Position numbers and translations under genes: made by a program. A stretch of 59,158 nt of DNA, from positions 1 through 59,158 of IMG/VR virus record IMGVR_UViG_3300014024_000069. One strand, given 5' to 3'. This stretch comes from a virus (Duplodnaviria > Heunggongvirae > Uroviricota > Caudoviricetes). The notes under the pieces are model-generated. The model was not told the DNA's origin and did not search any database. It worked only from the letters and a program-made list of their open reading frames with translations. Position 1 is the first letter of the stretch, and every line of letters starts with the position of its first letter. Positions 2,034 through 50,146 of the stretch are shown here, one piece after another.

Positions 2034-2131
2034 ACTATCTATTTCCTGCGCCTCTATTTTTTATAGAGGCGCTTCCGCAATAAAGAATGTAGGGATAATG
2101 TTTTCTTCTAGTTTTTCAGGAGGTTTTTCCT

Positions 2132-2386
2132 ATGGATTTTACGGGCGAGCTGCGTGCAGCGCTGGCGGGCGACGGACGATTCACCACCGCTGAGGGCGGT
2201 CTTGATGTTTCCCGTGTCGTGGAGGCTGCCTACGCGCAAGATGAGCAGCTTATATCAGCATTGCTAACGTCCCCGTTAAGGGGTATCGTTTTTCGGCAGT
2301 TCGGGCATGTCGTTAGTCTCGACTGTTCGCGGTTGGTGAGGGAACTGAGCTTGGATACTGCAGTAGAGCTGATGGCGGAAGAATAA
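2132..2386 (+). CDS. Stand-alone N-terminal domain of a type III R-M Mod subunit
   Basis: SD AGGAGG; LRAALAGDGRF...VVEAAYAQDEQLISALL...FRQFGHVVSLD resembles the Mod N-terminal domain; lies upstream of the catalytic ORF. Confidence 0.6.
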   Translation: MDFTGELRAALAGDGRFTTAEGGLDVSRVVEAAYAQDEQLISALLTSPLRGIVFRQFGHVVSLDCSRLVRELSLDTAVELMAEE

Positions 2387-7300: not shown

Positions 7301-7375
7301 AAAAGCTAAGCGCGCCCCGGCGGCACCTAAATTCGTTGGAGTGCAGCAGATCGAGTGAGTGCGTAAAGCGGCATA

Positions 7376-7430
7376 AAGTAAACCCCAGAAGGAAATGACT
7401 TCATCTGCCTTTCTCTTCTGGGGTTTACTT
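7376..7430. terminator. Bidirectional terminator-like hairpin between convergent genes
   Basis: AAGTAAACCCCAGAAG ... CTTCTGGGGTTTACTT 16-bp inverted repeat. Confidence 0.7.
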
Positions 7431-7714
7431 TAATCTACTCCTAAAGCCTCCTTTACTTTTTTAATTTCATCAAGAATAATTTGAATATGGGGAATAGCTT
7501 TCTCCACCTGTGGTTTAACCACCATAGGTGTTCCCTTATGGGAGACAGCGAGGTCTCCCCATTTGGCTTCCAACGCCCGTATATTCGAGCGAACGTAAGA
7601 AGACTGTACACCCAAGTAACGCGCGGCCTCTTGAGAGGATCCGCACTGGTAGAGCGCAAACAAGCTCTCCAGCTGTTTGAATGTCGGATCGCTGTAATCT
7701 TTTTTGTTTTTCAT
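7430..7714 (-). CDS. LysR-type HTH-only protein (paralog 1)
   Basis: PTFKQLESLFALYQCGSSQEAARYLGVQSSYVRSNIRALEAKWG matches the LysR HTH_1 pattern; no effector domain. Confidence 0.8.
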   Translation of the reverse strand: MKNKKDYSDPTFKQLESLFALYQCGSSQEAARYLGVQSSYVRSNIRALEAKWGDLAVSHKGTPMVVKPQVEKAIPHIQIILDEIKKVKEALGVD

Positions 7715-7995: not shown

Positions 7996-8086
7996 TTTGT
8001 GCCCCTCCTTGGAACTCTGGCGGGGTTTTTACACCCCAATGGTTGCTGACAAGATTTATATTAAGTTAGCTTTATTCCTATGTCAA
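7996..8086 (-). promoter_or_regulatory. Repeated promoter/leader module, copy 3
   Basis: Minus strand: TTGACA-N17-TAATAT-AAATCTTGTCAGCAACC, GGGGT..ACCCC hairpin, GTTCCAAGGAGG SD. Confidence 0.9.
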
Positions 8087-8160
8087 CTATCCCAAGAAAA
8101 ACACCCCCAAACGGGTGAACCCGTGGGGGTGCGACTAGACTGCAGAAAAGCGGTGGCAGA

Positions 8161-48311: not shown

Positions 48312-48995
48312 CTATGCGGCACCCATAAACCGCCCCAACATCCCCATCTGATGCACCGACAGCCCCTTCATTGAGTTAGGCGCAACTGTCATTAAACAAT
48401 CACCGTACTTATGCTTCACCTCACCCGCGTAAACACCTTGCAGTACATCATCATCCACCCACACTATCTTCACGCCCGCGCCGGGGTGAGAAGAAGGGTG
48501 TGCTAGTAGTTCGCTTTCGTCCAACCAGTTTTCCAACGCAGGTTTCTTGTCCCCCTGTGGCGGGTGGGCAACCCCCGGCGCGCCGAAATCAAGGAAGAAC
48601 TGCGCAGCATTCGGGGCTAGCCCCATCATGGCGGCGAGGGTGCCTGTGTGTTGCTTCCAGGTTGTCAACCACACCACCACGGCATCGTGATCAGAAAGGA
48701 TCCCACCAAGTTCCCCCACTAGTTTCGTGGACCATTTCACCATGCACGAGGGCGGTTCCACGCTGGGATCGTTGGCGTAGTACGGGTTTTCGACAACCGC
48801 CGTATGGTCAGTGGGGAAGTACTTTTTCCCCAAAGTTCCCGCCGATAGGGGGTTGAGCACACCGTCAAAATCAAGCACGATGATTTTGGTGATATTGCTT
48901 TCTATGAGGCTGTCCAGTGGTGGGGCTGGTAGTAGTTCCTTGGTGGCGGCGCAATGGATGCAGGGGTGTTCTGCGTTACTAGTGTTGGTGCTCAT
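48312..48995 (-). CDS. HAD-superfamily domain protein (HAD_SAK-like)
   Basis: LDFDGVLN motif I, WLTTW, WVDDD motif IV; SD AAGGA. Confidence 0.85.
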   Translation of the reverse strand: MSTNTSNAEHPCIHCAATKELLPAPPLDSLIESNITKIIVLDFDGVLNPLSAGTLGKKYFPTDHTAVVENPYYANDPSVEPPSCMVKWSTKLVGELGGILSDHDAVVVWLTTWKQHTGTLAAMMGLAPNAAQFFLDFGAPGVAHPPQGDKKPALENWLDESELLAHPSSHPGAGVKIVWVDDDVLQGVYAGEVKHKYGDCLMTVAPNSMKGLSVHQMGMLGRFMGAA

Positions 48996-49213
48996 TTCTT
49001 TTTCCTTGCCGTTTTCGCAGTGAATGTGGTCATACAGTTAAGGCATGTGGGCGGGTGTCCATGCTGTTTCATGAGGGGGGGCTGGCTGGATTGGCGTGGA
49101 CTGTCCTTGCATATACGCCCGTCTACACCAGACGGAAAGATGTGGGCTTGGGGTTTTGATGGGGCGATTGGTATAGCGCCCTAGCGTGCCACGGGGTTTG
49201 GTGTATAGTGAGC

Positions 49214-49315
49214 AAGAAGAGTCCTCAAACTTGGGTGGACTACAGCTGGGTTCCCGAATGGGAGTAAGGCTTTAAGCCCGAGAAATCCCTTGCTCCTGGG
49301 GTTTGAGACTCTTTC
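49214..49315 (+). ncRNA. Candidate structured ~100-nt RNA, antitoxin-like, orphan
   Basis: TATAGT -10 at 49204; closing stem AAGAGTC(C)TCAAAC / GTTTGAGACTCTT; inner hairpins TTCCC-GAAT-GGGAG and GGCTT-T-AAGCC; no ORF. Confidence 0.65.
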
Positions 49316-49340
49316 CTATTCAATAGGGGGTGCCGCTACT

Positions 49341-49583
49341 TTACAGCGAGCGCGCTCTCCGAACGCGCCTATCACGGGAAAGCTCGCGGTAAGTGCTGAT
49401 TAACGAATCGCCAAAAACGATTAGATCTATCCCTAACGATCCAACCATAGAAACCCACAGCAAACGATCACTCACACCTTGAGTATGTGCAAAGGCGCAC
49501 ATACCTAGCAGTGCAACGACAGGAATAGCGCTAATAACTGTAATTAGTGCAAGTTCGTGCTTGTTATACATCCCATAAAGCAT
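49341..49583 (-). CDS. Small 2-TM membrane protein
   Basis: SD GGAAGGG; two TM helices, basic tail. Confidence 0.7.
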   Translation of the reverse strand: MLYGMYNKHELALITVISAIPVVALLGMCAFAHTQGVSDRLLWVSMVGSLGIDLIVFGDSLISTYRELSRDRRVRRARSL

Positions 49584-49822: not shown

Positions 49823-49945
49823 CGGGGGTAGTCTTTGACGCTATGTGGTTGACAAAGATTTACAAGCAACCTAATATAAATCATGTCAGCAACACACAAG
49901 GGGCTAAAACCAAAAGCCCCAAAAAGTTCCAAGGAGGAACACAAA
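49823..49945 (+). promoter_or_regulatory. Repeated promoter/leader module, copy 10
   Basis: CGGGGGT-N19-TTGACA(49849)-N17-TAATAT-AAATCATGTCAGCAACAC; GGGGCT..AGCCCC hairpin; GTTCCAAGGAGG. Confidence 0.9.
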
Positions 49946-50146
49946 ATGACTAAGTTCTACGTAACAATTGAAGAGGTTGTTGAGAAGGTTGTTCTTATCG
50001 AGGTAGATACGGATAACAAGAAAGAAGCAAAAGACATTTACAACGGTAAAAAAGAGGGAAACATGATCGTACTCTCGGAAAGCGAAGAGAACGGTCTTGG
50101 AATAACATTCAAGAAAATTTACACAGAAAAGGAGTATCTTGGATAA
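49946..50146 (+). CDS. DpnD/PcfM-like small protein (cassette gene)
   Basis: MTKFYVTIEEVVEKVVLIEVDTDNKKEAKDIY; terminator AAGGGCAC..GTGCCCTT at 50149-50179. Confidence 0.75.
   Translation: MTKFYVTIEEVVEKVVLIEVDTDNKKEAKDIYNGKKEGNMIVLSESEENGLGITFKKIYTEKEYLG

Follow-up and report, generated by a model that had tools for sequence, protein, structure and literature searches.

The window analysed here is a stretch of 59,158 nucleotides, positions 1 to 59,158 of the IMG/VR record IMGVR_UViG_3300014024_000069 (element G000). Between a divergent HAD-domain gene and a small convergent ORF it holds a structured RNA on the plus strand, and the features of this locus are as follows.

48312 to 48995, minus strand: HAD_SAK_2 gene (RNA-repair-type HAD domain; PF18143, E 1.6e-8), divergent
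49204 to 49209, plus strand: -10-like hexamer TATAGT, read from the sequence (TATAAT in a sister element), with no -35 match
49216 to 49315, plus strand: structured RNA of a DUF3644/PDC-S19-linked family, from covariation, RNAalifold and a model match; inferred transcript with unmapped ends
49217 to 49232 with 49299 to 49313, plus strand: P1 closing stem, 13 Watson-Crick and 2 U-G pairs, one bulged C
49237 to 49296, plus strand: conserved core (P1b, P2, P2b and three-way junction)
49237 to 49238 with 49295 to 49296, plus strand: P1b, from alignment covariation
49244 to 49246 with 49292 to 49294, plus strand: P2, first pair G-C in 36/70 and A-U in 31/70 aligned RNAs
49248 to 49250 with 49287 to 49289, plus strand: P2b, with a compensatory change in the Javan334 copy
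49251 to 49264, plus strand: P3 hairpin UUCCC-GAAU-GGGAG, compensatory changes in 4/5 pairs, 100% of paired cells pairing
49268 to 49278, plus strand: P4 hairpin GGCTT/AAGCC, 4 bp here, of variable length in the family
49281 to 49286, plus strand: conserved AGAAAU linker of the three-way junction, from the alignment
49341 to 49583, minus strand: hydrophobic 80-aa ORF, convergent, occupying the HEPN-gene position of homologous loci

The core of P1 (49217-49230 with 49301-49313) consists of the 13 Watson-Crick pairs around the bulged C and is extended by the two U-G pairs. The stem is longer than in those copies of the RNA that are linked to the putative toxin gene described below, and a short U run lies 3' of it. 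The hexamer, a closing stem of 13 bp interrupted by a single bulge, the TTCCC-GAAT-GGGAG hairpin and the convergent neighbour are thus present as the initial annotation had described them, and an ORF check of the region (minimum length 40 aa) agreed with it that the RNA is free of ORFs. The GGCTT/AAGCC hairpin is also present, with four pairs and not the five given, because the fifth would leave a loop of 1 nt. The proposed fold of ~100 nt draws its support from covariation (14/26 pairs, n=70) and not from single-sequence folding, by which the window RNA is no more stable than chance (z -1.12, equalled by 24/200 shuffles) and takes an MFE structure that differs from the conserved fold. A sigma70 scan did not call the promoter in the window because a -35 match is absent. 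Searches with Rfam yielded nothing that reached gathering score in the window and nothing up to E 10 in 49000-49500, and neither the abiF nor the ToxI models matched. The convergent 80-aa ORF has no match in Pfam or PHROG, is unrelated to the HEPN gene, is diverging fast and, in a survey of neighbours at homologous loci, lies beside the RNA in the window lineage only. Elsewhere in the window two near-identical blocks, at 49849-49946 on the plus strand and ~8030-8090 on the minus strand, each comprise TTGACA, TAATAT, a short hairpin and a ribosome-binding site ahead of a small AT-rich ORF, which suggests a repeated promoter cassette.

A search with a 22-base core pattern recovered at least 120 genome loci and at least 119 viral loci (estimated totals ~280 and ~190 stretches), with hosts among the matches listed in the Clostridia, Bacilli, Actinomycetes, Saccharibacteria, Bacteroidota and Treponema. 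Since selection by an exact 22-mer would bias an alignment, the fold was examined in 69 distinct RNAs found by way of a protein search, together with the window RNA (n=70). In the family fold a long irregular stem (P1, P1b, P2, P2b) leads to a three-way junction from which hairpins P3 and P4 branch. Across the alignment 98.1% of cells pair and 14 of 26 pairs show compensatory change, a level of support reached by 0/500 shuffles, a control that ignores relatedness and so does not yield a probability; in slid controls 42-66% of cells were paired. RNAalifold independently returned the same nested fold, and the many G-U pairs favour the plus strand. A covariance model matched the window RNA at 49218-49312 with 81.8 bits, the window RNA being one of its 70 training sequences. 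A pseudoknotted alternative was rejected, as it pairs 96.6% of cells against 98.1% for the nested fold and is broken by the variant in the Streptococcus satellite Javan334, in which the nested helix is kept and the pseudoknot pairing lost. A resemblance of the core to HDV-like or theta ribozymes was also set aside, since covariation has the segment in question pair locally, forming P3, and the ribozyme models of Rfam gave no match. Among toxin-linked RNAs 85 of 106 have a -10 element at the matching place, 61 of these with a -35 (12 in a shifted control window), and the spacing of TATAGT in the window agrees once its longer P1 is counted. Rfam searches of 20 homologous loci gave no match to this RNA. 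On the alignment evidence, then, the RNA represents a real family present in several phyla, without an Rfam match and with a predicted three-way junction supported by covariation. The core loops are invariant across phyla while the stems covary, a combination that fits a protein-binding surface.

Among the matches listed, the commonest neighbour of this RNA is a convergent gene of 320-360 aa with the domains DUF3644 and EC042_2821 (PF12358+PF18740). A profile search placed it at 78/118 genome and 67/118 viral loci among the matches listed, the count being of loci whose downstream sequence runs to 250 nt or more (3/239 were too short and were left out, and 79 loci have a flank of only ~300 nt). 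It is convergent with the RNA at 145 of these 236 loci and in any other orientation at none, with its stop codon at or beside the 3' stem of the RNA in homologous loci. The RNA had been expected just upstream of its toxin; instead it forms a separate unit aimed at the toxin's 3' end. Viewed from the gene, the association is tighter still. The RNA lies at the 3' end of 73/73 testable genes (those with a complete end that is followed by 200 nt or more of sequence) among the best 80 of 565 matches, 7/80 being left out as at or near a contig end; the profile was built from RNA-linked proteins, so that the figure is valid for that clade only. Genes from cultured Staphylococcus or Streptococcus phages or satellites, chosen by protein search from 45 records, carry the RNA in 6/6 cases (77-87 bits). 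In 321 Corynebacterium genomes the gene was found in 18 and the RNA pattern in 34 (including one likely chance match and two uninspected ones), with gene and RNA adjacent in 17 of the 18 and the pattern unaccompanied by the gene in 17 of the 34. The one exception, in genome G166, is a distant PDC-S19 homologue that lacks the RNA; short inverted repeats lie downstream of it (L470 ~2080-2230, minus strand), and the DNA 3' of this gene might hold a different RNA. The linkage from toxin to RNA is thus near-obligate, and the anticipated connection with a predicted RNase defence gene proved to be tight, while ~40% of the RNAs at genome and viral loci among the matches listed have no partner gene. 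A gene almost never found without the RNA, and an RNA often found without the gene, show the asymmetry expected of a toxin and its antitoxin.

DUF3644/EC042_2821 has been classed as a HEPN family in published work (PMC3710099). The RNxxxH HEPN motif is invariant in 36/36 aligned partner proteins, and 5/5 of those tested match the PADLOC candidate PDC-S19 (E 1e-139 to 1e-148). A sequence search found no solved structure related to the partner protein, and its predicted structure (mean pLDDT 82) has as its nearest, weak, neighbour the HEPN toxin HepT (E 0.37, target TM 0.56). PDC-S19 is a widespread candidate defence gene and a predicted HEPN RNase. The module sits on temperate phages and satellites beside integrase or lysin genes, positions that are defence hot spots. 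Another DUF3644 protein, HEC-08, was reported in a preprint to give anti-phage defence requiring its motif histidine (10.1101/2024.01.29.577857), and a DUF3644-type/DUF4145 HEPN protein, Ishtar, is described as causing loss of the conjugative plasmid RP4. HEC-08 differs from the PDC-S19/EC042_2821 family in having zinc-finger-like C-terminal domains, Ishtar may or may not fall in the RNA-linked clade, and all three are treated in the passages available as single-gene systems, with no mention there of an RNA partner.

The convergent layout itself suggests another relationship, in which the RNA would pair as a type I-like antisense with the 3' end of the toxin mRNA. Firmicute type I pairs share this arrangement, and in homologous loci the toxin stop does lie at or next to the 3' stem of the RNA in a convergent, 3'-overlapping layout. 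The conserved partner, however, is a HEPN protein of 320-360 aa and not the small hydrophobic peptide of type I systems, and near-invariant loops on a junction that covaries across phyla exceed what self-complementarity would need, so that this mode of action seems improbable. A variant in which the orphan RNA targets the toxin mRNA of a host in trans, or the element's 80-aa ORF in cis, deserves equally little credence: the ORF in the window is indeed small, hydrophobic and convergent, but it accompanies the RNA in this lineage only, and orphans in tRNA clusters have replaced the very 3' stem that would overlap an mRNA.

The nearest experimental precedent for a protein-binding antitoxin is the AbiF/RCd22 system (RF03085), in which RCd22 neutralises the HEPN toxin AbiF in trans by direct binding (10.1101/2025.04.15.648962). 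The likeness extends to a structured RNA of ~100 nt, a sigma-A promoter of the RNA's own (here predicted), a HEPN RNase gene and an occurrence in prophages. RCd22, however, lies upstream of its toxin, is co-transcribed with it and has two abiF hairpins, whereas the present RNA is downstream and convergent with a single three-way junction; the partner is DUF3644+EC042_2821 and not Abi_2, and a match to RF03085 is absent from the 501-nt region even at E 10. The initial annotation had proposed a TenpN or Abi_2/AbiF-type partner, yet Abi_2 accounts for 3/113 convergent neighbours and ToxN/TenpN-type proteins for none among the matches listed, co-oriented downstream ORFs being found in a minority of loci. 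In the ToxIN, CptIN and TenpIN systems a tandem-repeat RNA antitoxin of pseudoknot units lies 5' of a toxin of the ToxN fold, and the outcome is abortive infection. The present family shares with them an RNA antitoxin set against an RNase toxin protein (both here predicted), and the abortive-infection context, and in the broad sense of type III its RNA gene is obligately linked to a predicted toxin (73/73; 6/6; 17/18). It differs in having no tandem repeats, supported pseudoknot or upstream operon, and its predicted toxin is a HEPN protein and not of the ToxN fold. Most likely the RNA would work like a type III antitoxin outside ToxI, TenpI and abiF. From the asymmetric linkage and the AbiF/RCd22 precedent together we consider it probable that the RNA binds and inhibits the predicted PDC-S19 HEPN RNase.

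The copy in the window has no such toxin beside it. A sister element carries the same locus (the sister records L442 and L443 do not differ in this region, so that the comparison is with one diverged lineage), and here the core is identical at 72/74 positions and the whole RNA at 96/102. Of the four flanking segments, the one upstream is 82.8% identical, the HAD gene 88.2%, the convergent gene 68.3% and the one downstream 88.3%; a binomial calculated by hand for 72/74 against 88% gives ~0.005. The core is thus conserved in excess of its flanks. Independent toxin-less copies elsewhere also keep the junction while the outer stem has been rebuilt, as in the prophage loci L415, L417 and L440 and in Eggerthella phage LE2-3. 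The Corynebacterium phage Darwin likewise has a toxin-less core, with a rebuilt outer stem, between tRNA-Lys and tRNA-Arg (L320 2489-2603), and Poushou, like Darwin a cultured phage of the host species Corynebacterium vitaeruminis, carries the RNA with a DUF3644 gene beside its integrase (L321 2478-3677). Three of 34 viral orphans among the matches listed directly follow a T-loop. Searches of whole records found DUF3644 in Poushou and not in eight toxin-less phage records. A further viral locus, L152 (1-450 and 1397-1546), combines within 1.6 kb a ROOL RNA, a truncated core of the DUF3644 RNA and two tRNA-like genes whose anticodon loops are abnormal.

It might be asked whether such orphans are simply what is left of a complete module that lost its toxin, the RNA bringing no benefit or serving only to terminate transcription of the convergent 80-aa gene. 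Chromosomes often hold orphans (40/118 genome loci, about a third of chromosomal copies, among the matches listed), and the toxin's last codons are still present in 12/74 distinct orphans (7/40 genome and 5/34 viral, among the matches listed), orphans that keep them being seen at L041, L047, L050, L083, L177, L186 and L199 and also at L411, L422 and L423. These scars indicate that loss of the toxin with retention of the RNA happens often, and in G000 the toxin's position has been taken by another gene. At the window RNA, however, no toxin-tail scar was detected (score 24 against a shuffled maximum of 35), the core is conserved above both coding and non-coding flanks, the -10 box is retained, P1 has been extended and a terminator would not need invariant loops. 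That the window copy is a relic is therefore unlikely, if less so than the antisense readings above.

The position beside tRNAs invites the further thought that the RNA may serve the HEPN protein as cofactor, guide or trigger sensor, or be active independently of the toxin, for example in catalysis or processing, and that G000 keeps it for this activity. Processing RNAs do occur beside tRNAs, linkage alone does not tell whether the RNA would activate or inhibit the protein, and G000 encodes RNA-repair proteins and a Ro60/TROVE protein. An activator, though, would make it hard to explain why toxin-less invaders repeatedly keep the core; a guide should have a variable region, and none is present except the P4 stem; and for catalysis or a Y RNA role there is no match to an Rfam ribozyme or Y RNA model. 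We regard such functions as doubtful. An identity as Y RNA, prompted by the Ro60 gene ~187 kb away in linear coordinates, was dropped because the homologues of the RNA track DUF3644.

In phages and prophages of Saccharibacteria the RNA occurs within arrays of exchangeable RNA stem-loop modules, which are separated by a 6-base spacer and enclosed by a long-range stem (L340-L400 around 1500; L401-L406; L182 1462-1790). The modules are of at least eight types and vary in order and content, and the DUF3644 RNA is one of them, present in 29/58 arrays parsed from 61 loci. Rfam matched no module in 10 array loci. A cognate toxin locus for the other modules did not appear: all matches of two module patterns lay in arrays of Saccharibacteria genomes, one module 13-mer was found in 13/401 genomes, near the reversed control, with the module stem in none, and BLAST of array modules against plasmids returned the DUF3644 module only or nothing.

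G000 is a single contig of 321,819 bp (322 kb) that has a terminal repeat, encodes 19 tRNAs and is catalogued as a complete virus record. A covariance model search places one copy of the RNA in it, a second match (7372-7435, 24.6 bits) having been rejected as a plain terminator-like hairpin; Rfam searches of the rest of the element found nothing apart from tRNAs. Profile searches of the whole of G000 gave no match to DUF3644, EC042_2821 or PDC-S19, and the element therefore is, as had been supposed, without a cognate toxin. Its thymidylate synthase is 78% identical to that of C. argentoratense, and RecA and a weak WhiB match also point to Corynebacterium, which is probably the host genus. That genus carries the system, in 18/321 genomes and in the temperate phage Poushou. 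The standing of G000 as a phage is less secure than its filing suggests. Pfam scanning covered 165 of the 196 ORFs that lie outside the window and encode 120 aa or more, and PHROGs 74 of these and 42 window ORFs; within the ORFs scanned no capsid, portal, tail protein or terminase was found, although two weak PHROG head-and-packaging matches of ~100 residues each were obtained. A VirB4-like ATPase is encoded at 183204-187043, a TraG-D_C coupling domain was not found, and FtsK, an M23/NlpC enzyme, sortases, a pilin, methylases and replisome genes are also present. From this gene content G000 appears more likely to be a conjugative megaplasmid than a jumbo phage. It further encodes an RNA ligase (102019-103218), PNKP (231507-232490), TROVE/Ro60 (236628-238172), ArdC (116563-117819) and a SocA/Panacea-type antitoxin (313191-313844), and these RNA-repair and counter-defence genes, with the HAD gene in the window (48312-48995), are consistent with pressure from host RNases.

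Taken together, these data lead us to favour, by a modest margin over even chances, the proposal that the RNA belongs, as an antitoxin that binds the protein, to an undescribed HEPN toxin-antitoxin defence system and is kept by G000 as a decoy. In such a system the invariant core of the RNA would bind the HEPN protein and silence the predicted RNase, by a type III-like logic but from a separate convergent promoter, and a fall in RNA supply during infection or plasmid entry would release the toxin. The window RNA, transcribed from its -10 box, would then rescue G000 in trans by silencing the RNase when the element enters or replicates in a host bearing the system, the targets being hosts or resident prophages that carry it. 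The same antitoxin chemistry could serve an end other than the blocking of immunity, in that neutralising the toxin of a competing prophage or plasmid would allow this competitor to be lost. The module does reside on temperate phages and satellites by integrase or lysin genes, and G000 has the SocA/Panacea-type antitoxin as well; those positions are, however, the ones recognised as defence hot spots, the partner gene is a PADLOC defence candidate and phages with copies in tRNA clusters would gain little from curing a rival, all of which leaves such a role a slim prospect.

For the decoy proposal a precedent of a kind is phage phiTE, which escapes ToxIN by a pseudo-ToxI RNA after repeat expansion selected in the laboratory (PMC3475682). 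In both cases an antitoxin-like RNA is found on a toxin-less invader, here G000 and the eight other toxin-less phage records. Relative to phiTE, the G000 copy differs in being natural, full-length, conserved and provided with its own -10 box, and orphans of its family turn up repeatedly, in elements that are unrelated, within tRNA clusters and as parts of modular arrays. Tentatively, and with somewhat less assurance than for the decoy in G000 itself, PDC-S19 may be a HEPN toxin not described before, held in check by a convergently transcribed three-way-junction RNA that phages and giant plasmids have domesticated repeatedly and independently as an anti-defence gene. With the same reserve, that RNA could stand alone in G000, be cut from tRNA clusters in Corynebacterium phages and form an exchangeable cassette in the arrays of Saccharibacteria, and we would be no more confident in suggesting that other array modules are decoys for further RNA-controlled defences.

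A description of the RNA, or of its pairing with the gene, was not found in open-licence PMC or bioRxiv text, and the RNA may be listed in subscription papers or in supplements, for instance those of large RNA-motif catalogues or a 2025 AbiF/Cas13 paper. A natural test pair exists in the non-pathogenic species Corynebacterium vitaeruminis, for which temperate Poushou provides gene and RNA and Darwin the RNA core only. If the proposal is true, PDC-S19 would join AbiF as the second HEPN family controlled by an RNA, its gene layout and RNA fold both being new, and a widespread candidate defence gene would acquire a mechanism. RNA antitoxin decoys, previously known from a phage case selected in the laboratory, would then be standing natural anti-defence genes, of a kind that escapes protein-centred searches.
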